A stretch of 59,949 nt of DNA, the filler included, from Sphacelaria rigidula (lineage: Eukaryota), in NCBI GenBank assembly GCA_964200075.2. It is 7 parts of 7 records of this genome, joined end to end, with 100 filler letters (N's around TTAATTAATTAA, not from the genome) between each part and the next. Parts side by side here need not be neighbours in the genome. Positions count along the whole stretch, not along the records: positions 1 to 8,480 come from CAXNAA020011008.1; 6 more parts are not named here. The stretch is one strand, 5' to 3'. The notes under the pieces are model-generated. The model saw nothing but the letters and a program-made list of their open reading frames with translations, did not search any database and was not told the DNA's origin. Both the position numbers and the translations under genes were made by a program. Shown piece after piece: positions 3,213-59,418 of this stretch (position 1 is its first letter; the number at the start of each line of letters is the position of its first letter).

Positions 3213-4359
3213 GCTCCCCAGGCTATGTCACTCCCCCATGTGGTTTTATACATGGTGATTTCATGCCGACGATGGTGTGGTTGCCAAAATTACGTACCTC
3301 TCTTGAGCATCCTGTGGGCCGCACTGGATGCCAGCGATCCCTTCCACACCCGCCTCCATCTGCGCGACGAAGTCCGGACCCTTGTAGATGGTAGGTGCCG
3401 TCACGGCTCGCGCAAACTCGCCTCCGTTGAGATACTCCGTCAAGGTGGACAGGATTCTATTTTTTTCCCCAAATGGTAAATTCGGGTTGGTGTACTTGTT
3501 CAGGTTTGTCTTAATCACACGAGTGATCCTGACATTTGGCATCCACGGTAGGTTCGTTGCGAGTGAAGCGTAGGGGCGGTATGGTTATTGATTTTGTTCC
3601 CAATACTCCAGCGCAAGTCCGATGTTGAAAGACTGAGGGTTGCAGCAGTGCTTCACGTCGTGCCGGGATTGTGAGGGATCGGGTTACTTAGGAAGTGCTT
3701 CTAGCTTCAAGTACTGGGTTTGCAAGTGCTTTTCGGGGTTCATCTCGATTCATGCAATCGTGTCGCGCAGTCGTTCGTTGTTTCATTCCTCGATTAATAT
3801 CTTTTCAGCCGCCCTCTTTTTTCTTTTTTCTTCTCCTCTGCTCGTCTCTACCTTTCCCTTCCTTTTAGCAAGGTTTGTATTTGTGGCTCGCTCCTGAGGA
3901 GTTAGTTGGGGGATGCGAGTGCCTACCCGAATGGTACATTCGCCAGATGTATGTGCCGTGACCTACTTCCACAGCACTGTCGTTTGTTGAAGCTCCGTAC
4001 CTGACGCCCTGTCAGGAGCCTTTCGAGACCCTGTCGTGATCGGTGCTCGATCTTCGCCCGGCGTTTTACTAGTCTTTCCTTTTCTTGCTTTTTCCTTCGG
4101 TTCTTTCGAGTTGCTCTGTTGGTGTCATCAGTTTCTCGTGTTTCGTTTTATTTCTGTGTTTTTCGGAGTTTGCTTGAGTCAGGGAGTGCTTACGTCACGG
4201 TACACTTGAGTACATCAGGTGATCACAGCTGGATATTCGAAGCAGACGAGGTCATCTTGGACAATCAACCAACCAAACGCCATCCCCACGGAGGCTTTGT
4301 TCAACGACAGGACGTTCGATTACATGGTTGTCAAAGAGGAAGTGTGTATTGTTTTGCTT

Positions 4360-4707: not shown

Positions 4708-5590
4708 TGGCTACTGCAGTTTACGAAGGAAAAACCCCAAATGAAAAGTGCTATTTTTCAGTGGAGACGCAATTGCTAGCAGAAACCATAGTGAGAGTTA
4801 CAGCTGTCCTTCCAACAGAGGGGATGAAAGAGATACCCATGTCCACGTCCTCACATTTTTAGCGATGGGAATCACATGCTTTGTAGAACAAAGTAAGACC
4901 CACATTTTCCTGACCCAATGGATTAAAATGTTATACCATCAGACCACCGGGGTGCATATTACTAGCATACACGATATCATCGCTCAAACCCCACTACAAG
5001 GTATATGGTGAGCGCGACAACCTAGCCCTTCATGACTACACCAATATGAACCAACATCTGATAAGCGTATCTGGCATGCTGTCGATTTGGTGTTTGTGAA
5101 ACGGCCGTCGCGTTTGTGCCTGCTCATGAGCTATTTAGCAACGACTATGACGGGTTTTTCGTCATGAGGAAGGGGGGCAAGTGTTTCTGACCGCTCCCTG
5201 TTGGCCATTTGAAACATGCTTCCACAACACGTGCATCACGCGTCGGGTCTCGGCTGTTTCCTAGCACATCCTCAAGACTCCCAGTACGGTACAATGGGTC
5301 GGAAAAAAACATCTCCGGGTTGATATCAAACGTTACGCTTAAGATATCCTACGATATACGACGGGGGGGTTCGACTGCACGGACTAAAAGGGTTCAAAAG
5401 TGTGGCACACGACCTCACACACTCCTTGTGCGACTGTACCTGGCTGTACCCCTCCCTGGGCGGTGTGAACGCGTGCGTCACGTTTATACTAAGAGCATTT
5501 TCGAATCGAATCTGCCTTGAAGCGACGCTTCAAAGCAATTCCTTCGTGCTGGAGGTGGCTCGAATCACTCCCCCTCCCCCCCCACCCCCC

Positions 5591-8439
5591 TTCCCCAAAT
5601 CCTAGCGATACAGCGAGAATAGAGTTTAAAAGGAAATGCAATGAAGTTGGACTACCCTGTTTGGCGAGAGGAAAAACAGAGAGGGGGGGAGAACAGTTTC
5701 GAATCACGCTAAAGAGAGCGTAAGCAAGGAGTGGGAAAGGATAGAGATAAGCAAGGTGTCGGCATGGGTCAGAAGGGTAGGATGGAGAGTACGCATAGCC
5801 AACGGAACAACAAACCTAAGACGTAGTGCGCGGGTAAACGGGTGGAAGGGGAAGCAAAACCAAGTAAGTACCCGGAAGGGGAAGGGGAGGGGACATAACG
5901 GCCCGAAGAAAATAGACAAAGACCAAACCGGTAAGGGGCAGAACAATCAAGCAAGGGGAGATAGAAATAGAAACGACGGAGGGATAACAGTCGACACGAG
6001 GAGAATGGATGATGATTCTGCAAGGAAGCTGATAACAGGATCATTGAACATGTGTGGATTCGCCACATATAAACGAAGAAGAAGAGAGATAGCCCAACGA
6101 GCAGGAAACCCCGACCTAAATATAGTGGGGGTCTAAGAGTCATGGGAGGGGGAGGGAGCGAAATAGGTTGCAAAGCTGAAGACTACAGATGGATAGGGAA
6201 AAGCAGAAGGGACAAGACCCCCAAGAGCAGGGGAGCGGGGGGAGTAGGATTCTTAGTCAAGGAATACCTGTGTGACATTATAGGAGTGATCGAAGAGAGT
6301 CATATGGACAAGGGTACCAGGAGAACGGGGAACGAAGGATTTCTTCGTAGGGAACATCTACATGCTCCCAGAATCGAAGAGTAGGGCGAACGATATACAG
6401 CGGAGGTTTGGAGAGATAGCAGCAGATGTACATAAGTACAAAGTGAAAGGAGAAAAATGTTAGTGGGAAATCTTAATCAAGGGTTGGATAAAGCAGGGCA
6501 ACCGAATGATATGATTGGGCAATACGGAGAAGATAGAAAGAACACGAATGGGGTAGATTCCTTGAGCGTAACGAGATAAAGATGCTGAACGATAGAGCAC
6601 ACAAGCCAGAGGCGCAATGGACATGAACTAAAGAATGCAAAGACGAGATAGAACGTTTCGTTCTTGACTATATAGTGGTAGAGCATGGAAACAGTGAAGG
6701 AATGGAAGTTCGTGCATGCGCGAAGGACGTGGGAACGACAGATCATTGCCTGGATGTGGACAAAAAGCCAACAGACGAGAGTTAAAAGAAATGGGCGGAG
6801 TAGAAAGTTGTACAAACGGAGAAACGATAGACTAGAATTGGGAGAAAAACATAAAGTGTTCCGAGAATGGTGGTCGAAAATGCAGTGACATTTTTCGAGC
6901 TGTTGGAACGCGTAGGTACAGTTGATACCGAAATGGAAAGGGATCGGACAGGAGCGAAGATTACAGAAGGATGGGAGCAAGGAGTTACACAAGGATGTAC
7001 GTTACTACCTAGGTTCAACGTATCTATTAATGAGCGATAGTGGCAAAGAGACAACAAAGCAAGGAGTCAAGGTGGGGGAAGATATGGTACCGGATTGATG
7101 TTCGCAGATGATTCCGTGTGGATATCATACACACCAGAAGGTTTGCAGACACAAAAAGATAAGGCGATAGAATACACTAGCAGAATGAGCGTGGCAGCGA
7201 ACGTCCACCAATGCGCGGTAGTCGTCTGTAACGAAGATAAGAAAAATCCGGTAGAGTGCGAATGGAAAGGGGGAAAAGAGGAACTGCTGATCGTAGACCA
7301 GTGTACATACCTTGGCGCAGCTGTCTGAAAAAATGTTCTTGGGATGCACATACATGAATAAAGTACTAGGAAAGGGTAAGCTTCAGATGGGAAGAATGGA
7401 CGTGATCCTCAGAGACTCGCGCCTTGATACCAGGGTCAAGAGATATATCCTGATGAACTTGATTGTACCAAAGCTGGAATATGCAGGAGAAGTATGGGAG
7501 GAAAACGTGAAGTTGGCGAAGAAGTTGGAAACAGTGCAGATGGCAGCAGCTAAGAAGATACTTGGATGCTCGAAAACGACGAGTAATACAGCATTGACAG
7601 CAGAGTTGGGAATTTACCCACTTAAAACTAACAGAGACACGAGGAAACTGAGAGCACAATATAGCGTGAAGAACATACAGAGAAAGATATTGCTAGCCTT
7701 AGTTGATGAGGATGTATGAAAAAAAATGACGAGATGGTAGGCTGGAATATGGTGGGATAGAGAAGTCGAGAAAGTATGTAAGGAGATAGGAGGAGCTCAA
7801 GACGAAATACCATCCATAGGTAAAGGCACAGAGTGCAAACAAAAGTATGAGGTATGATAGAAATGAGGGGGAAAGGAGAGCTCAAACGCAAAGTAGACGA
7901 GGAAAAACACATGGAGATATATAGGGGGTCGAGAGAGGGGATAGGGATGAAAGCATATTTGCATGGCCCAATGGATGCGGCGAAAAACTAGAAACTGCGA
8001 TTTTGGGTGGGGGACCTGGATCGGCAGGAAAGAAGAAAAATACATACCAGTAGTCGAGCGAAAGAGAAAGTAGATGCACAGAACTGTCCATGAGGCAAAG
8101 CAATGGAGAGCAGAAGTCATATAGTGGCAGAATATGAACTATACAATGAGGAACGGGACATGCTAGAGGTGAAAATGCGGGACGTGGACGAAGGATGAAA
8201 TCGTGTGATGCACTAGACAGTGGCGACAAAACGACGGCTATACTAGGAGGTAGATGGTCGCCAGAGACGGCGAAGAAGGACGGGGACAAGATACGTGAAA
8301 GTGTTTTGTGTAGTGTACAGGAGAAACGTGATGAGCACCCAAATGCAGGAAGTCTCTGTTAGGATTAGGAACGGTGCTCCGTGTCGAAAGGGATGCGTGG
8401 TCAATGGTCAAACGACTAGGGCAAGCAACGAATGAGTAC
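5591..8439 (+). mobile_element. Degenerate non-LTR retrotransposon (APE endonuclease + RT) with C-rich 3' tail
   Basis: APE motifs GSLNMCG, IVGV*ESW, GAGGVGFLVK, LDYIVV and TTDH (~6030-6750). RT motifs GVTQGCTLLP, LMFADD and TYLG (~6980-7320). C-terminal CPxG...ESRSH. Many stops and frameshifts, and RT subdomains 0-3 appear deleted. C tracts flank it at 5570-5590 and 8440-8480. Confidence 0.92.
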
Positions 8440-8480
8440 CGCACACACCCACCCACCCCACCACCCACACCACACAACAC

Positions 8481-15078: not shown

Positions 15079-15401
15079 TATAGAACTATCGATATCCCGA
15101 TAATTCAGATATAGATGCCGATAGACTTCATCATATCAGCTCAATCTTCTAGGTTATTACATACTACGTACGATTGTAGGAGATGACAGAGGACATGTCA
15201 GGGATACATTGACACCGTGATATATCAACATGATACCAGGCCAGATCTGGCGCCTCACACTGGATACGCACCCCCGTCTGATGGACTGGTTGGTTGATTG
15301 TTGCACATCAACTGATCCTCTATGAATGCAGCCGTAACCATGAACAGAATAAACAAACCGAAATTTGAATAAACGTGAAGGCTAGCTGGAGAAGACTCGA
15401 T

Positions 15402-15510
15402 AGGGGGGGGGAAGGATACCCATGATCTTGCATGCCGTAGTCATTAGAATATTGACCTCGCATCCCTATAAAGCCGGGACGGAGCACACCGTGTTTTCGC
15501 CGGACCAGGC
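15402..15510 (-). mobile_element. Short chimeric element: TAGCCT-family end fused to a variant of the C-tailed LINE 3' end; second copy at 16995-17059
   Basis: G tract, then ATACCCATGATCTTGCATGCCGTAGTCATTAGAATATTGACCTCGCATCCCT (aligns with the LINE end), then ATAAAGCCGGGACGGAGCAC...CCAGGCT. Confidence 0.7.
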
Positions 15511-16084: not shown

Positions 16085-16130
16085 CTGGAGATTCGGACGG
16101 ACAGACGGAGAGAGGAGGGGGGAGGGGGGG

Positions 16131-16370
16131 CGTACTCATTTGTTGCTTGCCTTAGTCATTTGACCATTGACCACGCATCCCTTTCGAGACGGAGCACCGT
16201 TCTTAATCCTAACAGACATCTCCAACATATGGGCGCTCAATGTGTTTCTTTCATACATGACACAAAGATCTTCCACATATCTTATCCCCTCCCTGTTTCG
16301 CCGTCTGTGGTCACCCTCTATACCTTAGTATAGCGACCGTTTTCTCGCTACTGTCTAATGTACCACACGA
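16131..16370 (-). mobile_element. 5'-truncated copy of the C-tailed LINE (240 bp)
   Basis: Reverse-complement homology to ~8200-8439; abuts the G tract at 16117-16130. Confidence 0.9.
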
Positions 16371-16656
16371 GGGAAGGTGGGATACACCAGAACAGACTGA
16401 CGTACCGGTCACTGCTTTCAGTTTCCCCTATACTCTGTAGCGTCGCTCTTGCTCCTCTGTTCGTCTATCTTGCCATGAAACTGTTACAGAACTGATCACC
16501 AATCTCACCATAAAAACTGCCACCGATTTTCAACTCGACACTATTCCACGGAGAGAGAGATGCTTCAATAATTATCTAGTGCACAACGTATTGACAATTC
16601 TCCACACGACACCTATTTTTTCTCGCACAAAATACCGGGGGGGGGAGGGGAAGGGG

Positions 16657-16707
16657 CGTACTCATTTGTTGTTCGTTGTTTACCTTAGTCGTTTGATCAT
16701 TGACCAC
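16657..16707 (-). mobile_element. C-tailed LINE 3' fragment with 15-bp TSD
   Basis: CACAAAATACCGGGG at 16626-16640 and again at 16705-16719. Confidence 0.88.
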
Positions 16708-16717
16708 AAAATACCGG

Positions 16718-16830
16718 GGAGAGATGGATCGATCCCTTGAGACCACGGATTCGTGCCGAGAAAGGGAAGGGGATCAAAGTGCGAAGAATAAATACATAAA
16801 TAAATGAATAAAAATATAATAACAAACAAA
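16718..16830 (+). repeat. Dispersed repeat GAGATGG..CGA.CCC...GACCACGGA(T/C)TC...AAGG..AGGGG followed by an A-rich tail; copies at ~26778-26860 and ~27160-27245
   Basis: Three homologous copies on two contigs, each followed by an A-rich run. Confidence 0.65.
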
Positions 16831-16950: not shown

Positions 16951-16990
16951 CGTACTCAGTTGTTGCTTGCCTTAGTCGTTTGACCATTGA
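16951..16990 (-). mobile_element. C-tailed LINE 3' fragment (40 bp)
   Basis: Flanked by GAAGGGGTGGGGGG and GAAAGGGTGGGGGG (imperfect TSD). Confidence 0.85.
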
Positions 16991-17159
16991 AAGGGTGGGG
17001 GGGGTGTACTCATGATCATGCATGCCATAGTCATCAGACCATTGACCTCGCATCCCTACNNNNNNNNNNNNNNNNNNNNNNNNNNNNNNNNNNNNNNNNN
17101 NNNTTAATTAATTAANNNNNNNNNNNNNNNNNNNNNNNNNNNNNNNNNNNNNNNNNNNN

Positions 17160-17190
17160 AAAATACCCCCCCCCTATCGTAGGATGACTC
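17160..17190. mobile_element. Right TIR of MITE family B (AAATAC-C tract-TATCGTAGGATGACTC); also at 34372-34405
   Basis: Matches the termini of the complete copy at 40415-40745. Confidence 0.75.
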
Positions 17191-17321
17191 CTTGCATGCT
17201 TCGGGAGCGCATATACATTGTTTCCATCGTATTCTCGAGGCTTCATACCCCAAACAGTACGGTCGTAGTAGGTGAGTCACGGTCTTTTCCCACGGCCTTT
17301 TGTTTCCTACGAATGAGTACG

Positions 17322-17584: not shown

Positions 17585-18068
17585 TTTTTCGCCACAAGAC
17601 CGCACCCCGTACAGACTTCGACGATGGTCGTCATCATCTTCGCCAGTTTTGGTTGAGATCGCGAGACGATTCCAGCGTCGTAAGCGTGAAGCATGGCCCA
17701 GAGCACTTTAACAGGGGTGTGGTCGACGGTCAAACAACTAAGGCAAGCAACAAATGAGTACGCCCCACCCCCCCCGAAAATAATCGAAGGCACTTGCGGA
17801 CGGTACTTCCCTCGGGGTTTTGTCGCGTACTGGCTAGCCGCCTCAAACCTCATTTCATTGATCAACCTCATTTTTTAGAATCCCCTGTTCTTTGCTAAGC
17901 CCATCCTTGGCTCTCCCGCCCCTTTTGGGGATGCGAATGAAGTCCTTCGCCATCGCTTCATTGATCGACAAGCGATCGAACGTCTCCGTCAGTGCCGCCG
18001 CGAAGACGATGCTGAACAAACCGGGGGAAAGCACACAGCCTTGGTTGGCGGAGGGCTTAGTTAACGTC
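17585..18068 (-). pseudogene. RTE-clade LINE reverse transcriptase remnant (continues at 23851-23955)
   Basis: QGCVLSPGLFSIVFAA and WAMLHAYDAGIVSRS (degenerate YADD). The upstream part GTPAKMMFIIHQFHDGIRTCV lies on the far side of the gypsy element. It is also interrupted by a C-tailed LINE fragment at 17714-17775. Confidence 0.85.
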
Positions 18069-25738: not shown

Positions 25739-25827
25739 CACGCTCCGTCTCGAAAGGGATGCCTCGTTAATGGTAAAATGACTATGATAAGGCAAGCGAC
25801 AAATGAGTACGCCCCCCCCCCCCCCCC
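25739..25827 (+). mobile_element. C-tailed LINE 3' fragment followed by C16
   Basis: ...GCAAGCGACAAATGAGTACG followed by 16 C (25812-25827). Confidence 0.88.
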
Positions 25828-26405
25828 ATCGTAGCTTAACTCCATTGTTATTTGATCATCACGACAATCAATTGTGATGGTAATCATTGTTGTCGTAGTC
25901 ATAAATCATACTCATCATAATTACCAACAGTTGTTTCTCTTCTCTGTAGTGTACCAGTATTTTTCATCATTATACTCCATACAGATTAATCACATTTACC
26001 ACTATTATTATTACGTTCATCATCGCAAATCGAAGATCAAAACATCCATGGAAAGTAATGAATCGCCTGAGACAACATTTCGCAGTCAGAGTCAATGTAT
26101 ACATGATGCACACCAACAAACTGTCAACAGAAAAGCGGTGCCGAATATGTACCCAGCCTCACAGTGACCCCAAGGCATAGAGACCTTGGCGTGTACTTGA
26201 ACAGAAAACATCACGGGCCACTGCATTGTGCGGGTTTGTTCTTCAGTTGTACTGAGTCTATCTGTGTCGCCATGTAGGCCCTACCGTTTGTACAGCATCC
26301 GTCCGCGGGACAAAGGTTTGCGGTGTTGTGTTCGGAAAACGTGGGGAGAAGGAAAAAAAGAAGGGAAATACACTTGACAAAAAAAAAATGGAAAACAAAC
26401 CTTAC

Positions 26406-27603: not shown

Positions 27604-27751
27604 CGTACTCGTGTGTTGCTCGCCTTCATCACTTGACCATATTGACAAGGCACCCCTTCGAGACGAAAGGGGGGGCGTACTCATTTGTTGCTTGCCTTAG
27701 TCGTTTCACCACTGACCACGCATCTCTTTCGAGACGGGTCGGGGGGGGGGG
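27604..27751 (-). mobile_element. Two tandem C-tailed LINE 3' fragments in DRP5B intron 2
   Basis: Units at 27604-27665 and 27676-27737, separated and followed by G tracts. Confidence 0.85.
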
Positions 27752-32790: not shown

Positions 32791-35700
32791 GTTGAGCAAC
32801 CACCATTAACCACGGACACGGCCAAGTGTTACCAGATAGTTCTTCCCCTATTGTTACCCTACCCTGAGCGTAATGCAAATGCACGACTCCCTGGGTTATG
32901 CTACACAATGACCTCCTGTCTGGGACAGAAGCGTATGTGATGGCGCGTAAAAAAACAGGGGGCAGCCTTCACGTACCGGCACGTGGAATCAGGCCTAATT
33001 TTAAGAGCGATGGAAAATGGCACAAGTAGTATCAAAATACTCGATTTTAGTATTTGGAAGATGTGACTTTAGACAGGCGGATTGCTGACCCATGACCGTG
33101 AGATTTTATGAGATAGTCTTGTGTAATTTATTATAGACATTTTCTCTGCAGCGATTTGCAGCGATTTCTTTGTTGCGGATCTCCGTTTTCTTTGTCTTCC
33201 AGTTACAGTGTGGCAGTGTTCTTCCGATGTCAAATATCTTCGTCTATTATTCCTGTTGATCGATTAATGACTGCTTGTTACGATCTGCCTTTCTGTTCTG
33301 TGTAGCGGTGCCCGCATCTTCCCCAGCATTAATTAAGCAAGATGATCGGGGAGCCTTTCTTCTTTGCATCGATCAATTTTTTTACTTTGTTTGGAGTTCA
33401 CACCCCGAACTTTTTTCACCAAAAGGGGGTACTGTACTAAACCCCCCACCCCCCCAAAAATGTCGATGGTGATGGCTACGGGGAGGTATCTTACTTAATC
33501 ACAAGAAGCGTCATTGTGTTGTTCGCTACCCGAAAAAATATATTGTAGATGATAGATGAGTGTAGGAGCAGTCAAGCTCCCCCTTCTCTCTCAAGCTTGC
33601 GTGTTACGTTGTCAATACAGCGAAGTACGCTCCACTAGAAGAACGCACTACAGGTTAGTCGCAGTTGAGTCAGGCAGCAAACTACGCTGTTGATCGTTTT
33701 CTGATTTCTGGATCGCGATCGCCACAGCAAGCGCGTCATGATTGCGCGTTACTTTCCCGTTATTTTTGTGTTGGTCTGTATTCGTAGCTGTCTCGTCTTT
33801 TTTCCCTTTATTTTTGCCATACATACCCTACAATTCGCCTACTACGTGGCTTTCCCGAAACAGATAAAAAGGAGGAGTACCTTGGGAGTACTTGAAAATT
33901 AAATACAAAGTAGGCCGATGGACACAGATGAGCGTACCCGCCCGACAAGTAAACAGGATATTCCTCGTAGTATACCTACTGTGGAAGTACCAGACAGGAA
34001 GGAAGTGCACCCCGCGCACGTCGCCCGAGGGGTACACCACCAATCAAGCGGGCGTCCGCCCTGCGATCATCAGTATGATTTTACCAAGTAAGTGCGGTGT
34101 TTAAATATCTTGTGGAAAAACCGCAGAGGATTCACGAAGCACATGAAACAACAAATTGTGAGAATTGAGGTTTAACTTCGAGATGAGGCTCAAGCCTAAA
34201 ACAGTGCTTTCCCCACNNNNNNNNNNNNNNNNNNNNNNNNNNNNNNNNNNNNNNNNNNNNTTAATTAATTAANNNNNNNNNNNNNNNNNNNNNNNNNNNN
34301 NNNNNNNNNNNNNNNNCCCGAAGGGGGGTCCGTGTCCAAGCCCACACACCAAAGAAAAAAAAACATTCAGCCCCCCCCCCCCCCCCCCCTATCGTAGGAT
34401 GACTCCTTCGCACTACTTCCAGCCCCGGTTGATTCCGGTTGATTGAAGTGTCTGTGCTTTACATTTCGGCGGGGTGTACTACGATTACGGCTTGCTGCCG
34501 TGTGTTGGATTGTCCGAACACACAAGCAGCAGACGATTCAATTTGCCGGGGCCTTGCGCCGGTTTCTGCATTGATTGTGTAGCTGATATATGAAGCCTGG
34601 GTCTTAACGCGGGGGTCGCGGCGGATAGGCGACATGCCACAACTCCATCTTTGTAGGCAGCTGAGCGGCAGGGACGGTTCGGCGCCACATAGTGATGGTG
34701 ACAGTTGTAAAGATCGCGTCACGGCCCTTGCCTTTATCATTGCGCTGCCCCTTTGCAGGTCTATCGGCATGGGCACGCGCGGCGGGGATATCGGGGCGAT
34801 AGACGACCTCTCGCACGACGGCCAGCGAGACGCACCTGGGACACCGGTGAAATTCACGGAGTTCGTATCATGCCAGGATTAATCTCCGTGTTTTAGTCTC
34901 CGTCTCATGGTATGCTATGCGCAGTGGTGAAGATATTGGTAGCTGATCCTCACCACAGTAGAAGCCCGTGTGTTTGCAATTTACATTGCCAAGCGCTTTG
35001 ATTGTCCGTCGGCGGATGGACACATGCTGTGTAATTAGGGTCTCGGTAGTATCAGGCCAGGTTTTTGTCTCGGGTGGTGTTCGCAGAGATACGGTCACGC
35101 AGGAAAATCCCCCGTATGCAAAGTCAACATAGCATAGGCCTCTGAGGTCGTGTCCACCGGGCGCTCGTTTATCATCGCCCCACCGCCGTCGCCACCCCCC
35201 CCTCGATTACTTCATCGCCTGCGCCATCACCGCGTGCAGGACGTGTCGCCCGGAAGCCTAGCTGACATCCGTGAGATGGCAGGGGGAAATCCCGCGGCAG
35301 AATCCGTCGAACGGTCAGGTGGGCGCCGATGCTGCTGATGCTGTAATATGGCTCCCCTTTGGCCCCGTAAACGCGCTGAAGGTTTCGCTTCATGTGAAGT
35401 TTTTGGGCTCAAATAAGCCTTCCCTTTTAAACCTTCAACGAGCTTGAAATTTGTGCAATGCTTATTATGTGCTCGAAATGCGCACAGATTTGCGATAATT
35501 TGTTATTCGCCTCCAGCAGCCATTTTATCAGCGGCGTGGACGTGCCTCTCATGGCCTGTGGCGTGATTCGCGACTGGTCAATAGACACGTTTCAATACTC
35601 CAAACCGCCATGGTTGTGGGTGTCACCCGACAAACGCTTCTGTAAATATTTCATGTATAGTATACTATGTTGAGTCGATAATTGTTATCAATATTTTGTA

Positions 35701-38747: not shown

Positions 38748-39122
38748 TGCTTCGGTTTCAGCAAAATAGAAAATATCATCCACTCACACTTTACAGTTTA
38801 GACCTCGCAAACTGTCAGTCAGCACACCTTGAAATTACGCCGTGGCGTTCAACACGCCCTGTGGGACACGAGTGGGCGTAAACAAACGGTCAGGCGTGAC
38901 GATCGTGAAGATCTCCTGAGCCCCCGGCGCCACAGGCATCTGCCGATACCTCTGTAGCAGGTCCAACTTGCCGAAGCATTGGGCTCCCAGCAACTAACTC
39001 CCGGATGTCTTCTCGGGTTGTCATCACCACCGGAGACTGTTCCATCTGCGCATTCACCGCCTGGTAGTCGCTGACCAAACGGAATGTATCCCGCTTCGGC
39101 ACCGCCATCGCCGGACTCGCCT
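38748..39122 (-). pseudogene. Gypsy RT fragment, same family as the 18069-23850 element
   Basis: Aligns with ~20920-21270 (AVPKRDTFRLVSDYQAVN...VDDIFYFAETE). Confidence 0.9.
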
Positions 39123-40414
39123 AGGATTGACTATCGTCGAGCTGAACAATAGTGCATGTGTACGTGGATTCATCCGGGTACATGCGGTGCAGATTGATGA
39201 TATATCATGGGTACCGAATTCGGATTGTGTTATGACTTGATGTGTTATATATGAGAGAACCCGGCTTGCGGTCCTACCTCACACGATCAGTTGTGTTTTA
39301 GGGTGCATATCGGTCTTTGCATTTGGGTTGGAGGAAGTAGCTCGGGTGAAGCTTGCACGATTGATGTTTGGTGAGTGAAGGTTATACGGGTTTAATACAA
39401 GAAAAATGTATACACATTCCCCTGTGTGATATGATGTGACTGCAGGACGTAGCCATGATCTTGGGCAAAAGTGACATTGAATGATGAACATTTTCATATT
39501 CAAATAGCGGGATTTTGGCTACCCGTTGGGTTGACGTTCTACGGAGAGTATGTATTTGAATTCGAAAAAAAAGGTAGTGACCCAATCATGGCATGTATTG
39601 AGGAGCTCGGCTCTTGGATTTTATGGTATGACCACAGCTTATGATGATTATGGGGCAGCGAAACACGTTTGAAGCTGTAAGCAGTTCCAACGAGCTCACT
39701 CTCTTCTCATCTCCGGTTTTTGGCTACAACCCAATAGTTTCCCATTGGAGTATCTACAAACCGCGAGAAAGTGAGTCCCAGGGATAAGAGCAGTAGTCGG
39801 GCTGCTGTTTTGTCTGGTGTGTTTTATTGATTGAGGCTTCGGCTTGTTTCGGTTTGTGTTGTATTTGTGTGCTGTAGATAAAGCTGTAGATGAAGCTTGG
39901 ATACAATCAATTGCGTGAAAAAATACGGTGCTACGCTCGTCTGTAATTGCTTGTTGTCTCTTTGTGTGAAATACATGAGAGCGACTGTGGTCAGCCTGCG
40001 CTGCCGAGCTGAGTAAACAGACAACGTACACTGAGGTCTGAACCTGGAACAACCGTGGTGAACACCATTGCACTCTTCTCAAGGTGCCTCACCCATATTA
40101 CATCACAGTTGGAGCTCCCGCACTGCCTCTGCTGTACGATGTTTCGAGTTGCGTTGTGTTCGGACTGCCGAGCTGCCGTGTATACTACACTGCCACTGTG
40201 TGCCTTGCATGCGCATCCCTTTTGTTTGTTCATCGTCTAGCCGTCAGTAGCTGTTGCTCACTCCCAACCACCACCTTCTAAAACAAACCAACGCCCATGG
40301 AGTCCTGCGTCCATGGCCTCTACTGGGGAGATCATGTTCGCACACACCCCAGGCGCATTCAACAGTGGTTTTCTAAGCTGGCCCTTCGTGACGGAAATTT
40401 GGCCGGAAGTGTTT

Positions 40415-40745
40415 GAGTCATCCTACGATAGGGGGGGGGGGCGTACTCATTTGTTGCTTGCCTTAGTCGTTTGACCATTGACCACGCATCCCTTTCGAGA
40501 CGGAGCAATAGGGGGGGGGGGTATTTGGTTGCACGAAAAAAAAGGCTTATAAGTGTGTCAGATGACCTGCAACACTCACGATGCGCTTGTATTAGGTTTA
40601 CAACGGTGTCAATCGGTATGAACGAGCGTTATGTATCTATTATAAGCTCGTTCGAGCAACCGTTGCTGATTTCAGTGGTGATTTGTCTTGGAATATCGTG
40701 CAAGAAATGGCCCAAAATACCCCCCCCCCTATCGTAGGGTGACTC
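40415..40745. mobile_element. MITE family B (TIR GAGTCA(T/C)CCTACGATA-G tract-TATTT) carrying a C-tailed LINE fragment at 40442-40507
   Basis: TIRs at both ends with GTTT/ATTT flanks. The insert is bounded by duplicated ATA-G11 (40428-40441 and 40508-40521). Confidence 0.88.
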
Positions 40746-40889
40746 ATTTCAGGTAAGCACTTCGATGAACACAACAGATCCCCCCCCTATGGGCCAGTAA
40801 CGGAGACCCTAACCTTCGATCAGATGAAACTCGCCGCTGCAAAGATCACTGCCTGAACTGTGACACTTGGGCAGTTTGGCCCCACGATC

Positions 40890-42794
40890 GGCAATGGAGA
40901 AAATTGTACGAGAGCAGCTCGACACATTGTCAAAGTCACCAATTCTGATTTTTCCAGACTGGTCAGCTGCTGAAAATGGCTCCCGTCCGTTCCGACTGCA
41001 CACGGATTCTTCCAAAATTGGGTTTGGCTGCACACTGAAACAGGAACAAGACGATGCTAGTGTTCGCCCCATTGTATATCTGAGCCGAACCACCTACCCA
41101 AACGAACAGAACTGGTCCGTTATGGAACAAGAAGCAGGTGCAATTGTTTGGGGAGTGCGCCGACTCCGGCAATATTTGTATGACCTCCCGTTTGTGATCT
41201 ATACAGATCATAAGTCTTTGGAAAACCTCGCCAAAATGGCGGAACACAACGCCCGGGTTCAACGCTGGTTTGAAATCCTGTCTTCCTACAGCTCCACGTT
41301 GAAGTACCGCACAGATCCCCAAAACGCAAACGCCGACTTCCTGTCACGCTTGCCCTTACCAGCCCAACCCATCGACAATTCCGCCTTGGGTCGCATCACA
41401 GATCCCACCGAAGACGTTGTATATTTCATAAGCACAAATGGTCATCGCGGACCCTATACACCACTCTCACTGAACCACAACTCGGCACTTGTTGAAACCA
41501 AGCTGACGCCTTCGGCTCACGCTTCTGTACTGGGCAGTTTGGCCCCACGATCGTTGTGTTCACTTAGGAGTGAAATTCGTGCAACCACCGGCGGGTATGA
41601 TCAATTTCGTGCATCTGGTCATTGGATGGTTTGCACTGTAGAGCCGGTTTCTACTGACTACGTCCTCCCGGTTCAAGTCCGAGACCTCCTCTCGAGCCGG
41701 ACCCGAGGACGCCGGGCCGCGGAAACGGCTGCCGCCGTGGCAGCAGCCGACCCAGACCTCCCAATCCCCAACCCCATTCCAGTTACCGATAGCCTCCTTG
41801 CGCCCCCGTTACCTCCACGGCGCAAAGCCCCCAGAAAATCGACACCTTCCAAACCACCTCTGCCCACCATAGTCGAGACCTCGACTGTGCCTCCTTTACC
41901 CCGTGATGGTACCACCTCCGGTACCACACCATCCGACACCCTCCAAAACGTGGGAATAGAGGTGGACGTTACCTTTGAGAATACACTGACCACCCCCTCT
42001 GACCTTGATCCAAATAACGCCTCGTATCCATCCCACAGCGAATCGATCCCCTGCGTTTTGGACAACCCCTCCGACAGTGTATTCAAGGAACTGACCCTCT
42101 TTTCTCACGCCGATTGGGCCCGGGAACAGCAAGCTGAACCTGCTTGTAATGCAGCTATACATTATCTATCCAAAGGATGCCCCTCCCCCTTTCCAGAAAC
42201 TAAGTTCCTTGTGCCAGTAGGGCCCCACCGAGCCCCCACACAGGATGAAGTTACTGAATTATCGCGTAAAGGCACGCTTTATACGGATGATGATGGCGTT
42301 GTTCTTTTAGTTCACCGGCCCCACACGAACCCTCCTGGAGGGAAACCTACAAGTAGTCACGCCCGTTTGTTGGGTGATGCCCCCGCACGTATTTATGTTC
42401 CGATGCTTCTGCGTCCATGGGTTCTCCATGAATACCACTCACAAGCATCCACACATCTGGGCGTCGCTAGGACCTCCCAGATGCTTCATCGTTTTTTTGG
42501 TGGATTTGTATGGACCAATGTGTGCGTTGGTGGGTTCGGCGGTGTCTTCTTTGCCAAGCACGCAAAACTTCGCGTCAAACAGTTAGATGGCCGGTAATCT
42601 CTATGCCCCTTCCCAATGGGCCTGGTGAAATAGTTTCATGGGACTACTTTGGCCCCCTGCCCCTCACTGATAGTGGTAACAAGTACATTTTGTTGTTTAC
42701 GGATCGGTTCAGTCGACATGCTGTGATGAATGCTGTTTCGGAGGCCAACTATAGTGCAGAAGGGACTGCCAACGTCCTTGTGTACACATACATC
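40890..42794 (+). mobile_element. Ty3/gypsy pol fragment (RNase H + long linker + integrase), truncated by contig end
   Basis: RNase H PFRLHTDSSKIGFG...RPIVYLSR...YTDHKSL...NADFLSR. Integrase H...HLG...CLLCQARK and WDYFGPLP...YILLFTDRFSR. Frameshift at the T7 run 42492-42498. Confidence 0.93.
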
Positions 42795-49139: not shown

Positions 49140-49600
49140 CGCGATAGCCCCCCCCCCCTAACTCACCCGGCACGCCTGCTCCGTCTTGGAGGGATACGTC
49201 AATGGTCAAACGACTAATAGATTGATTTGATTGATTGGTTGATTGTCGCACTTTAACTGACCCCCCAGGGATCCGCCCGTGGTCACATGATACGCGTAAC
49301 ACAAAATGGTAACACAAAACGGTAACATTCGCTGAAGAGAAGACGGAACAGAAAAAGTCGAACAGAACGACATAGTAAACGAAGACTAAAAAAAAAGAAG
49401 TAGGGAAGCAACAAATGAGTACGTCCTCCCCAATCCGGTGCCAAAACTGTCACGAAGAAGATGATCACATAGCGCATGACAACTGCTCTCGGAATGTGCA
49501 TGAAACGCGTCATATGGGCGACGTGGCGCAAAACGATCCCGAGCGCGGGAGTTTCCCGGCTGCTCGATGTGCTCGGCTTCTGTCATTTTGATTCGCATGT
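49140..49600. mobile_element. Three-level nest: MITE A > C-tailed LINE fragment > (AATC)-tailed element
   Basis: TIR-like CGATAG-C11 at 49142-49158, LINE end split into 49177-49217 and 49401-49423, (AATC) element on the minus strand from 49218, and MITE A body resuming at ~49430. Confidence 0.7.
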
Positions 49601-49819: not shown

Positions 49820-50959
49820 CAAGGTTGTGTTCTGTAAGGTATGGTTTTCTGTATACGTGGGGTATTTTTCCGCGTATGTACCGTACCCGACAGTTCTGTG
49901 ACTTCTGTAAGACTTTCATACCGGTACCCGACAGTTCTGTAATCTCTGTGGAACTTTAATACCCTTACCCGATAGTTCTGTAAGTTCAGTACAATACATT
50001 TACCCGAACCCGAAGAGCGGGTATACCCGAAAAGAGTTACCCGATAGCCGGTACCGGTTCTCTGTAAGCCTCCCATACCGTACCCGACAAGTTCTCGAAA
50101 GTCTGCAAGACTTTCATACCGGTACTCGACAGTTCTGTAAACTCGGTGAGACTTCCATATCGGTACCCGATATTTCTGTAAGCTCTGCAAGCTTCCTGTA
50201 CCCTTTAGGGTATACCCTTGCAGATATATACCCCGTTGCAGGTACGAGCACAGGTATATACCCTCAACAAGTATGGATATAGGTTCAATCAAAACATAAC
50301 CTTATGGCCCGAACATGTACCTCCCAGCTCCTACCACCACATCCTGCCCTCTCATTCATTTCAGCACCTCAAACAAAAAATCCAAGGTTGTGTTCTGGTA
50401 GGTATGGTTTTCTGTATACCCAGGGTATTTCTCCGGGTATGTATCGTACCCGACAGTTCTGTGACTTCTGTAAGACTTTCATACTGGTGCCCGACAGTTC
50501 TGTAATCTCTGTGAGACTTTCATACCCTTACCCGATAGTTCTGTAACTTCTATACAACACATTTACTCGAACCCGAAGAGCGGGTATACCCGAAAAGAGT
50601 TACCCGATTGCTCATACCGGTTCTCTGTAAGCCTCCCATACCATACCCGACAAGTTCTCTAAAGTCTGTAAGACTTTCACACCGGTACTCGACAGTTCTG
50701 TAAGTTCTGTACATAACACTTACCCGAACCCGAGTGGCGGGTATACCCGAAAAGAGTTATCCAACTGCCGGTATCAGTTCTCTGTAAGCCTCCCGTACTG
50801 TACCCGACAAGTTTTGTAAACTCTGTAAGACTTTCATACCGGTACCCGACAGTTCTGTAAACTCTGTGAGACTTCAATATCGGTACCCGACAATTCTGAA
50901 CTCTGTGCGGAATCTCATACCCTACAGTACGTATCCGTACGTTACAGAACACAACCTTG
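49820..50959. mobile_element. Non-autonomous hAT-like element (dimeric) full of TACCCGA subrepeats
   Basis: TIR CAAGGTTGTGTTCTG / CAGAACACAACCTTG, 8-bp flanks TAAATTTA / GAAATTTA, two related units (49820-50303 and 50383-50959), and many ~39-bp repeats with core GTACCCGACAGTTCTGT. Confidence 0.8.
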
Positions 50960-51182: not shown

Positions 51183-51301
51183 CTGACAGCACCATGGGAG
51201 ACGGGGAGGAGCAGTGCAACGAAGGACAGAAAACGACAGAGGAAGCGGAGACGAAAGAAAAACAAAACATAATAATGGGAGGAGGTAGAGGGGGGGGGGG
51301 G

Positions 51302-51372: not shown

Positions 51373-53048
51373 NNNNNNNNNNNNNNNNNNNNNNNNNNNN
51401 NNNNNNNNNNNNNNNNTTAATTAATTAANNNNNNNNNNNNNNNNNNNNNNNNNNNNNNNNNNNNNNNNNNNNCGGTGCCGGTAGTCCATCTGGACCACGT
51501 GTACTTTTTTCAAGTGAATATTGATGCCGATTCAGCAGGTGACCTACTCTCGCGGTCTAACGGTTAACTCCCCCTGCGGAGCTTTGGGGAGGAAGATACT
51601 CTCGCTCTGTGTTACTATTCCGTATCTCCCCTGCAATGGAGAAGAAATGCGACTTCAACCCCATTTTAGTGTTGAACCCCAAAAATTAAAATCGGCTGTT
51701 AATTCGTGATTACCGCCCCACATCTAGCCCACAGACGTCACAATACGATGGACTTGCCTCCGACTACCCCCCCCATCTCGCGAAACGAGTGGTGAGCTTC
51801 CATCGGGTCACCGCTATACGATTGCGAAGGAGGTTGCGCTCGCTATTCCACCGGTTAAGACTAGGGTGCCCAAGGGCTCCCTGGGGCCAATTTGCGAACG
51901 CTACGATGTTGGTCCCGAGTACCCGACTAAATTGTGGAAAACCGCCCCAGAGCCCATATGGACGCTATCTAGGATGTCGACCTTTCCAAATAGCGCAAGG
52001 TCTAGACATCCGTCGCTCCTGACGCCCATCAAGGTGGCGGCGCTAAAGAAGGTCAAGAAACAGAATCAGCCATTTTTTGGCCGATTTGAAAGGGGCGAAA
52101 TACGGCCAGTTTTTGGCAGACTGATTCTTTTGCGCCCGACAGCGTGCTGCAAAAAACAAAATGTCGTTCTACCTCAAAAAACGGCGAAGGAATCGAAAAC
52201 AAAATCGAAAATCAGATCGGACAACGTTGACCCACGCGGCCTTTCGGCTACCCCCTTAAAACCCTCTATGATCGCCATTTTCATCTTCTCCAGGGTAAAG
52301 TGGCCCTCCCGAGGATAAAAATGCACTCTATAGGATATATCATACTCGGTTCCGGTCATGAAACGAATAATCTGGACGGAATCTGATGCTCCAGTGACTT
52401 CTGAGGTCTGAATTCCTCCAGAGTACCACAAATATGGTGCTCGGGAGCACGTGGTTTTCGTGAACAACCATTGAAGGGAAATATGAACAGCAGAAGGAAA
52501 TATGAGCATCATTCCTCTGGAGGAGGGACCGTCTATGGCCTTTAAGGCATTTGTTGCGACTTCGGAGGACATAGCCGTGCAGCATCCTCCAGCGTGTACA
52601 TTTACACTGTGTCCTAACTGCTTCCAGGGCACCTTCAGGACCATCACGCCAGAAACAATACCACCACAACAACCCTGCAGCAAAGAGCACGAGTTGGGTG
52701 CAGGGATATAGATATACACTGCAGTAGTTGGGTATGGTGCATGTCTTGTTGGTGGAAGTTGAAACGTGAGCATCTTCTCCCACGGTCGCGGAGTCGCGCG
52801 GTGTCGGAACCATGCGCGGGGTGGGGTGCGGGCAATAACCGGCGCTTTACTGCATACATATACCCATGGACAGTGCGCAGGCAGACAAAGCTGCGCACAC
52901 TGTTCAAGTCCTTTTCACGTCGCACTGTGAGCAGAAAACATACAAATAGTCCTGCGCTATCTGTACTGTACTCTGCCCGCTTCCCTTGCACGTTCAACTG
53001 ACTACATCGGAGCATGTCAGCATGCTGCAAGAGCGGGTGTCGTGATGT

Positions 53049-53298
53049 GACACTTTCTGCAATAGCCCCCCCCAAAAAACCAGCCAAACGTGTCTCGAAA
53101 AAAATGAGCATACAGCGCCTGATGTTTGGGTTCAGGCTGCATGAAGCGCCTCATGTTGGCAACACTGGCCAGGACGAAGCCAATCGTGAGAATTCCCAGC
53201 TGCTCGTTGTGCTCGGGCTTTTCCCTTTTCGATTTACGTGAAGATTTTGCCTCCCAAAACCATGCACGTTTTGGGGGAGGGCTATCGTAGAAAGTGTC
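53049..53298. mobile_element. MITE family A copy with exact 4-bp TSD ATGT
   Basis: TIRs GACACTTTCTGCAATAGCCCC / GGGCTATCGTAGAAAGTGTC; ATGT at 53045-53048 and 53299-53302. Confidence 0.9.
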
Positions 53299-54642: not shown

Positions 54643-54764
54643 GTGCGTACACGGGAAAGTATTTCCGACCGTTTCTCTGCGGTCGGCGAAAGAAACTCCG
54701 TGCGGATATACGCTGCTGCGTCATGTATCCCGCGGCTTGTCGCGTGAGACCGATGGGAATGGTA

Positions 54765-55104
54765 GACACTTACTACGATAGCCCCCCCAAAAAAACAAGA
54801 CGTCATGATTTTGAGAGGCGAAATTTTTAGGTAAATCGAAAAGGGAAAATCCCAGCACAACAAGTAGCTGGGAATTCCCACGCTGGGGTTCGTTGTAGCC
54901 AATGTTGCCAATATGGGGCGCTTCATGCAGCCTGAACCCGAACATCAGGCGCTGTATGGCCATTTATTTCGTGACACTTCTAACTGTTTTTTTTTTTCGG
55001 GGGGGGGGCGTACTCATTTGTTGCTTGCCTTAGTCATTTGACCATTGACCACGCATCCTTTTCTCTTTCTGTCTTTTTGGGGGGGGGGCATCTTGGAAAG
55101 TGTC
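54765..55104. mobile_element. MITE family A copy with exact TSD GGTA, carrying a C-tailed LINE fragment (55009-55060) in its right TIR G tract
   Basis: GGTA at 54761-54764 and 55105-55108; a T-run/G10 motif is duplicated either side of the insert. Confidence 0.88.
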
Positions 55105-59273: not shown

Positions 59274-59298
59274 CTACTACCGCTACTACTACTACTAC

Positions 59299-59391
<93 letters not shown>

Positions 59392-59418
59392 CACTACTGC
59401 TGCTGCTACTGCTGCTGC
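59274..59418. repeat. (ACT)n microsatellite grading into (GCT)n
   Basis: About 40 trinucleotide units; explains the poly-T/S/V ORFs in the track. Confidence 0.97.

Follow-up and report, generated by a model that had tools for sequence, protein, structure and literature searches.

Probable insertion at C/G tracts by an RTE-X-like LINE family of Sphacelaria rigidula

How does a long interspersed nuclear element (LINE) which carries no poly(A) tail come to stand, copy after copy, directly against a run of C or of G? The question is raised by a stretch of 59,949 nucleotides from Sphacelaria rigidula (GenBank assembly GCA_964200075.2), hereafter the window, in which seven contigs, each about 8.5 kb long, are joined via N44-TTAATTAATTAA-N44 spacers, and in which one long, dead copy of such an element shares its 3' end with a number of very short ones. 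The initial annotation of this DNA had proposed a C/G analogue of A/T-primed target-primed reverse transcription (TPRT), and this proposal is supported in outline by the C run found in the readable target-site duplications (TSDs) and by uninserted paralogues. We think it quite probable that we are dealing with a LINE family of the apurinic/apyrimidinic endonuclease (APE) type, of the brown-algal RTE-X kind, which would insert at C/G tracts through the pairing of a C tail with a G primer.

The shared 3' end and the element that carries it

The element ends in ...GCAACAAATGAGTAC(G). Searched as GCAACRAATGAGTAC with at most 2 mismatches, this 3' end has 13 matches in the window, where 0.30 are expected, and none of 100 shuffles reaches 13. 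Twelve of the 13 are true copies of the LINE 3' end, at least one of which lies in each of the seven contigs; read in sense orientation, they have in common about 40-70 nt upstream (...GCTCCGTCTCGAAAGGGATGCGTGGTCAATGGTCAAAYGACTAAGGCAAGCAACAAATGAGTAC). The remaining match (17306-17320, plus strand) is not a copy: GAGTATGAGGG stands behind it, and the alignment with the element stops at the motif. The letter right after the motif is G (10), C (1), or A in a variant, and then comes C-rich sequence. A run of at least 4 C is found in the next 14 nt behind 10 of the 13 matches, against a background of 3.9% calculated on 118,514 windows of 14 nt (binomial P ~2e-12), and behind two more ends the C-rich sequence is impure (CGCACACACCCACC at 8440, GCCCGCCG at 27604). 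The 12 ends that the initial annotation had placed across all seven contigs, each against a C or G tract, are thus all recovered by the motif scan, and all have C-rich sequence behind them. It had also noted the lack of poly(A), which is true for every copy examined, in the window as well as in the external loci presented below; in this the family departs from the L1 clade. Two extra copies with a variant 3' end, at 17005-17057 and 15412-15487, both on the minus strand, were found by blastn with an intact relative, L002 (see below), and have C8 and C9 behind them respectively. Most copies are extremely truncated at their 5' side, being only 40-70 nt long, and their 5' ends differ, falling at positions 3537, 3711, 3712, 3715, 3722, 3725, 3733 and 3737 of L002. 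Variable 5' truncation, a constant 3' end and TSDs of variable length are together what one expects of a LINE.

The same junction is found outside the window. Four of four external loci, namely three metagenome loci and a fourth, L004, end in ...TACG followed by C8-C14. L004 was found by exact pattern in a contig of a metagenome-assembled genome (MAG) labelled "uncultured bacterium"; it holds 430 nt of the LINE coding 3' end followed by C14, and most likely the contig is algal and was placed in a bacterial MAG by mis-binning. A collection of viral contigs scanned for the 3' end gave 0 matches.

The initial annotation had described the element as carrying both APE and reverse transcriptase (RT). 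Both domains can indeed be traced, through intact relatives; the copy in the window is degraded. The list of its open reading frames (ORFs) shows it riddled with stops, and Pfam gave no relevant family on its 13 single ORF pieces, because the copy is too broken, so that an intact relative was needed. Searching with phmmer from the 140-aa ORF of the RT thumb (7297-7719), we matched 635 proteins. A broader first alignment was too diverse for a search for loci; the profile of a narrower one gave three marine-metagenome contigs, L002 among them. L002 contains an uninterrupted frame of 1253 aa (P0156), open at its 5' end, and P0157, 88% identical to it, is a full ORF of 1360 aa which begins with M. 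In P0156 and P0157 a single endonuclease-RT (EN-RT) ORF runs from the APE through to the 3' end, as in RTE-X elements. The APE domain of P0156 matches Exo_endo_phos at residues 64-285 (3.1e-11) and Exo_endo_phos_2 (9.2e-07), the latter extending to about residue 308; its RT domain matches RVT_1 at residues 634-883 (7.7e-33), has human L1 ORF2p and R2 reverse transcriptases as its matches in PDB, and is followed by a CCHC-like motif. An N-terminal APE-like endonuclease with an RT downstream is the layout of an APE-type LINE.

The long copy, whose sense strand is purine-rich (GC skew 0.35, AT skew 0.33), begins at about codon 24 of P0157. It aligns with residues 2-386 of P0156 (the APE part, with stops) and 766-1253, and at the DNA level with L002 108-1161 and 2305-3775, at 71-76% identity (blastn). 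The gap in the alignment with L002 means that about 1.14 kb of RT were lost from this copy.

The intact relatives also tell where the coding sequence stops. The frame of L002 ends ...KASNK-TGA inside AAATGAGTACG, with the stop codon 5 nt ahead of the C run, and the intact ORFs P0156, P0157 and P0158 have the C-terminus ...NGQMTKASNK in common; distant relatives (38-39% identity) show a (G)CVVNG-like motif near their C-termini. As this shared peptide reaches to within 5 nt of the end, the conserved 3' end is coding sequence. Hence the element has in practice no 3' untranslated region (UTR): it ends ...AAATGAGTACG, and then comes the C run.

Target sites and the mode of insertion

We examined the flanks of the 10 copies for which both are available, leaving out the split copy 49177 and the copies at contig edges (17057, 25742, 51372). 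In seven of these 10, at least 4 C in a row stand within 25 nt upstream of the 5' junction, against a background of 7.2% (P ~1e-6). Two TSDs with at least 3 non-C letters can be read: CCCCGGTATTTTGTG (15 nt) at 16658, which reads C4GGTATTTTGTG, and C11TAT (14 nt) at 40443. Probable TSDs are also seen in two further places, at 16951-16990 (C6AC3-4TT) and at 55009-55063 (C10 followed by an A run and ACAG). One can notice by eye microhomologies of 1-5 nt at the 5' junctions.

Two of the copies stand inside other repeats, of which paralogues can be compared. The copy at 40443 lies in a terminal arm of an element of about 330 bp (40415-40746) resembling a miniature inverted-repeat transposable element (MITE), whose arms, TGAGTCAYCCTACGATA-G10/11, are 96% complementary. 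The opposite arm reads AAAATA-C10-TATCGTAGGGTGACTCA, with one run only and no LINE piece. Deleting the LINE piece together with one C11TAT rebuilds the MITE arm exactly, that is, one C run followed by TATCGTAGG. The site AAAATA-C9/10/19-TATCGTAGG is found uninserted at 17166 (C9), 40720 (C10) and 34371 (C19), as against the filled site at 40443. In the same way, the site GACACTTTCTACGATAG-Cn-A6CCAGCCAAAAGTGTCACGAAAAAAA..., filled at 55010, has uninserted paralogues at 1732, 53066 and 54782. Taken as images of the target, these paralogues show that the C run was present before the LINE was inserted.

Contigs of four sequencing runs (X1, X2, X4, X5) were aligned to positions 38800-42000 of the window at a likeness of at least 88%; such contigs show presence, and not copy number, RNA ends or allelic empty sites. 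Contigs of X2, X4 and X5 join 40411 to 40747, without the MITE. The bin 40405-40511, which holds the 66-nt copy, has a summed depth of 1.5e7 in X1, where most bins have 1e3-1e5, and is 100-1000 times as deep as most bins. Loose ends beyond the 3' end (before 40431-40434 on the plus strand) have a G-run consensus in X1, with 1347, 339, 299 and 279 records at four adjoining places, and are similar in X2, X4 and X5; in the contigs of the four runs, copies which end against such runs number in the hundreds to thousands. Joints which go back from 40507 to 40431 are seen in 51 contigs of X1, 36 of X2 and 15 of X4.

From this small number of copies we infer the position of the nick, the pairing of primer and tail, and the origin of the C residues of the RNA as follows. 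In the usual geometry of TPRT, the TSD starts at the bottom-strand nick; here it starts with the C run, and therefore the primer would be a bottom-strand 3' end of G. The endonuclease would nick the bottom strand at or within the G run, and the exposed 3' end would pair with the C residues in which the RNA ends, most likely derived from read-through into the C run behind the source copy. Reverse transcription would then begin at the G of ...GTACG. The top strand would be cut about 14-25 nt downstream, so that the whole C run and a few further bases are duplicated. Every insertion would thus leave a C run on both sides, each a new target, and this regeneration would explain the tandem pairs 27676/27604 and 17005/16951 as well as the joints from 40507 to 40431. 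Judged from the junctions, the element does insert at C/G tracts, and the model that fits best is one in which a C-tailed RNA pairs with a G-run primer, its biochemistry being conjectural. As a tentative refinement, to which we give slightly less than an even chance, the C run of the daughter copy would be donated wholly by the target, with a nick where the G run ends on its 3' side and with the read-through C serving only as an annealing handle, so that the run is duplicated in register (11/11 and 10/10, see below); since there is no 3' UTR, the signal recognised by the RT would lie in the last ~65 coding nt. If this were true, the family would breed its own hot spots and build tandem arrays, it would colonise homopolymer runs in the inverted repeats of other transposons, and it would be a mononucleotide version of microsatellite-specific LINE integration.

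The rival which survives best dispenses with a functional C tail on the RNA: the endonuclease would see the edge of a G/C run, priming would proceed without pairing, as in R2, and all the C after the element would come from the duplicated target. The runs on the two sides are equal at 40443 (11/11) and 55010 (10/10), and compare as 7 with CCCGCCG at 27604, as this rival would have it; the first two cases suggest that in-register copying of the target's run is frequent. The insertion at 16658 speaks differently: the upstream copy of the TSD has 4 C, and at the 3' junction a 20-nt C-rich stretch stands ahead of the same GGTATTTTGTG, so that about 16 nt of C-rich tail must have come with the element. 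Besides, C stands behind every source copy, so a read-through RNA would carry C anyway. We consider the tailless alternative unlikely.

It is far less likely still that the 40-70-nt pieces are a satellite, or passengers in other repeats, spread by duplication at the DNA level. The sequencing runs do contain many tandem units of about 70-77 nt, and several copies lie inside other repeat families; however, the 5' ends differ, the flanks are unrelated, two copies have exact TSDs of their own, and the host repeats have paralogues without the LINE piece. A poly(C) tail added without template, by a nucleotidyl transferase or by terminal transferase activity of the RT, at random insertion sites, would account for the C after every copy end and for run lengths from 4 to 16, but 7 of 10 copies also have the C run ahead of their 5' junction, the run forms part of exact TSDs, and the uninserted paralogous sites already hold it; we regard this as highly improbable. 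A hairpin or structure-specific origin of the runs, and likewise a sequencing artefact, were rejected: the runs are internal to contigs, the four external loci show them too, and they are part of exact TSDs.

Returning to insertion by pairing of a C tail with a G primer, several points weigh against it. Among the 10 copies for which both flanks are available, 16368 (C/T-rich only), 17719 and 15487 lack a run of at least 4 C in the 5' flank, and these three have no recognisable TSD either. Even when the flanks of different copies are compared, 5' with 3', they have strings of up to 13 nt in common, because all flanks hold C runs; therefore only TSDs with non-C letters are informative, and those with at least three such letters number only two. 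The equal runs at 40443 and 55010 also fit priming without an RNA tail. The uninserted sites seen are paralogous, none of them truly allelic, and none of the listed records holding the stretch is RNA. The 3' end yielded no conserved RNA hairpin (z 0.16; 10 pairs by alifold, 0 of them compensatory), and 111 of 200 shuffles fold as well as its last 101 nt by minimum free energy. Lastly, it is likeness to the Ectocarpus annotation, and not a phylogeny, on which the placement in RTE-X is based.

A GAAA-capped hairpin which can be seen by eye at the 3' end was discarded, being unsupported by shuffles or covariation, and an Rfam scan of the window gave no match.

Copies and neighbouring repeats in the window

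Table 1. Coordinates of the LINE copies, their flanking tracts and their duplications, counted along the window.
Feature	Position	Strand	Remarks
C-rich tract (CCCCCTCCCCCCCCACCCCCCTTCCCCAAAT)	5570..5600	+	directly upstream of long copy; C8 at 5576-5583; probably a C-rich TSD (5' copy)
Dead, nearly full-length LINE copy	5601..8440	+	tblastn of P0156/P0157; blastn against L002
APE remnant of long copy	~6040-6750	+	
Internal deletion of ~1.14 kb, long copy	junction ~6978-6986	+	
RT palm remnant with FADD, long copy	7101-7112 (FADD)	+	
RT thumb, long copy	7297-7719	+	
CCHC-like motif, long copy	8085-8138	+	
Stop TGA, long copy	8433-8435	+	
C/A-rich tail or target tract	8441..8480	+	reaches contig end
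Second copy with variant 3' end	15412..15487	-	C9 at 15403-15411; no C run in 5' flank
238-nt 5'-truncated copy	16131..16368	-	C/T-rich run ~16101-16130
48-nt copy, perfect 15-nt TSD CCCCGGTATTTTGTG	16657..16704	-	TSD 5' 16705-16719, 3' 16626-16640
Further 16 nt of C-rich tail of 48-nt copy 16657..16704	16641-16656	-	
40-nt copy in C run behind variant copy 17005-17057	16951..16990	-	TSD ~C6AC3-4TT
Copy with variant 3' end (...CATGATCATGAGTACA + C8)	17005..17057	-	cut by contig end
44-nt copy	17719..17762	+	tail CCCCACCCCCCCC at 17763-17775; no recognisable TSD
70-nt copy at contig start	25742..25811	+	then C16 at 25812-25827
65-nt copy, downstream tandem member	27604..27668	-	C7 upstream, CCCGCCG downstream
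62-nt copy, upstream tandem member	27676..27737	-	C11 27741-27751 (5' flank), C7 27669-27675 behind
66-nt copy, 98.6% identical to L002	40442..40507	-	in inverted terminal repeat of MITE-like element
Perfect 14-nt TSD C11TAT of 66-nt copy	5' 40508-40521, 3' 40428-40441	-	
Split copy, parts 49177-49217 and 49403-49423	49177..49423	+	tail TCCTCCCC; ~185-nt unrelated insertion
C11, 18 nt upstream of split copy 49177..49423	49148-49158	+	
71-nt copy at contig end	51302..51372	-	then C12 at 51290-51301
55-nt copy, 98.4% identical to L002	55009..55063	-	inside another repeat family
C10 on both sides of 55-nt copy	55079-55088, 54999-55008	-	A run + ACAG after each

The run behind the long copy (8441-8480) is C/A-rich CACACCCACCCACCCCACCACCCACACC and not pure C, and the contig stops inside it. 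The sister 3' end (...GACTAYGGCATGCAWGATCATGRGTA followed by a C run) seen at 17005-17057 and 15412-15487 suggests a second related LINE family with the same kind of target. At the split copy, the LINE 3' end is interrupted by an insertion of about 185 nt (49218-49402) which, read antisense, ends in a CAAT/CAAC-rich stretch; CAATCAACC-rich pieces like it lie near 17600-17640 and 15290-15320. Possibly this insertion is an element of RTE type whose tail is (CAA)n-like, to be compared with RTE-1/2_Ec32 of Ectocarpus, which are annotated as "(CAA)n 3'" (PMC12477816).

The termini of the MITE-like element (40415-40746) consist of TGAGTCAYCCTACGATA, G10/11 and TATTT..., so that a homopolymer run stands 17 nt from each end, and the flanks are TTT. 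Its terminal motif also occurs at 17166-17190 and 34371-34405, and more weakly at 25812-25845, 15385-15411 and 5340-5369. The second repeat family lies at 1690-1760, 53040-53110, 54760-54800 and 54960-55100; its end is GACACTTTCTACGATAG followed by C7-11 and A6CCAGCCAAAAGTGTCACGAAAAAAA, and in three of its copies the conservation extends beyond 120 nt, to one side only. This family's 17-nt end piece shares CTACGATA with the MITE terminus, with a C run, not a G run, after it. Runs of at least 7 C or G number 34 in 59 kb, against about 4.6 expected from composition; about half of them adjoin LINE copies and most of the others belong to the MITE and to the second repeat family. Tandem arrays with units of 41 nt and 157 nt are also present in the window, as is a (CTA)45 microsatellite (49879-50906, 59274-59410).

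Relation to Ectocarpus RTE-X and to other known systems

The initial annotation knew of no described family with this tail and target, allowing that such a family might exist, and this part of it was not upheld. The Ectocarpus transposable element (TE) library annotates elements with the same tail and the same target: in Supplementary Material 3 of PMC12477816, RTEX-1a_Ec32 (5867 bp) is described as "single EN-RT ORF; (C)n 3'", the TSD of RTEX-1/2_Ec32 (RTEX-2_Ec32 being 5582 bp long) is given as "C-rich", and RTEX-N1a "can be present in tandem". The same source annotates "(C)n termini/TSD" for the RTEX_Ec32 LINEs and their non-autonomous partners, of which RTEX-N1/N2_Ec32 have their 3' 60-100 bp in common and a "C-rich" TSD, gives RTEX-1_BF as the best blastp match of RTEX-2_Ec32, and counts RTE-X as the most abundant LINE group of Ectocarpus, with 16,418 copies or 3.41% of the genome (PMC12477816). 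By these Ectocarpus figures, the lineage would be the most abundant TE group in brown algae. The term "C-rich" has 0 occurrences in the main text of PMC12477816 as covered here, the published record being a table note, and in the same portions of that source no TSD anatomy, empty sites or mechanism are given for RTEX_Ec32.

Our family resembles RTEX-1/2_Ec32, as annotated there, in its single EN-RT ORF, its (C)n 3' end, its C-rich TSD, its tandem habit and its very high copy number, and it resembles RTEX-N1/N2_Ec32 in its short forms, non-autonomous or truncated, which share about 60-100 nt of 3' end. It differs in being apparently of another species or family, with a protein identity of 55-71%, the comparison being made by annotation and not by consensus sequence. 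The best named matches to P0156 are "unnamed protein product" entries of Ectocarpus sp. CCAP 1310/34, one of them 55% identical over 76% of the query, and others matching shorter parts at 71% and 62%; the more remote named matches include a Branchiostoma protein. By the Ectocarpus matches, and by sequencing runs with part of this DNA which are labelled with a coded organism or "algae metagenome", the host would most likely be a brown alga or else a near relative among the stramenopiles. One Ectocarpus protein model ends in ...NGAPSRKGRVANGQMTTASNK, to be compared with ...NGAPSRKGCVVNGQMTKASNK in the family of the window, and two other models end in ...RGRVVNGLTAK, the sister form, so that there are two C-terminal forms, as in the window. 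Together with these matches, the C-terminal peptide, single EN-RT ORF, (C)n end, C-rich TSDs and tandem copies make it very likely, as far as such features of sequence can tell, that the family belongs to the brown-algal RTE-X group. Full-text searches of the literature found no paper on a poly-C-tailed non-LTR element or on its mechanism. The family is therefore not new, being another alga's member of an already annotated kind, of which the mechanism has not been studied experimentally in the literature found. The anatomy of the TSDs and the uninserted paralogues add something to the published table note; since the basic fact is already in a curated TE library, the gain is one of anatomical detail.

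Duplication of the C run probably explains much of the excess of long C/G homopolymers in the window. It may also explain many contig breaks, three copies being at contig ends.

To our knowledge, LINEs targeted to homopolymers other than those of the A/T kind are rare. An endonuclease specific for G/C runs, combined with the pairing of tail and primer, would make a clean natural test of the role of base pairing in the choice of LINE targets. In TPRT of the L1 type, a poly(A) tail pairs with a T-rich primer at TTTT/AA. Our family would be alike in its APE nick and in the pairing of a homopolymer primer end with a homopolymer RNA tail, and it is alike in TSDs which start with the base of the tail, in frequent 5' truncation and in new insertions into older tails. 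It is unlike L1 in having C/G for A/T, its TSDs beginning with C instead of lying at the A/T-rich targets of the L1 clade, in showing no visible polyadenylation, and in its single ORF which ends 5 nt from the end of the element.

Members of the RTE clade are said to have very short 3' UTRs, as Malik and Eickbush reportedly described in 1998. The likeness here lies in the single APE-RT ORF and in a simple repeat which follows after a 3' UTR only a few nucleotides long; the differences are a (C)n tail, in place of an AT-rich or (CAA)n one, and the CCHC-like motif behind the RT. Finally, microsatellite-specific LINEs comprise Kibi at (TC)n, Koshi at (TTC)n, Waldo at (ACAY)n, Mino at (AC)n and Dong at (TAA)n. 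In these, as in the family of the window, the repeat of the tail is the repeat of the target and is regenerated on both sides; the repeat unit of our family, however, is a single nucleotide, and those elements belong to what are probably other clades, Tx1/L1, R1 and R4.

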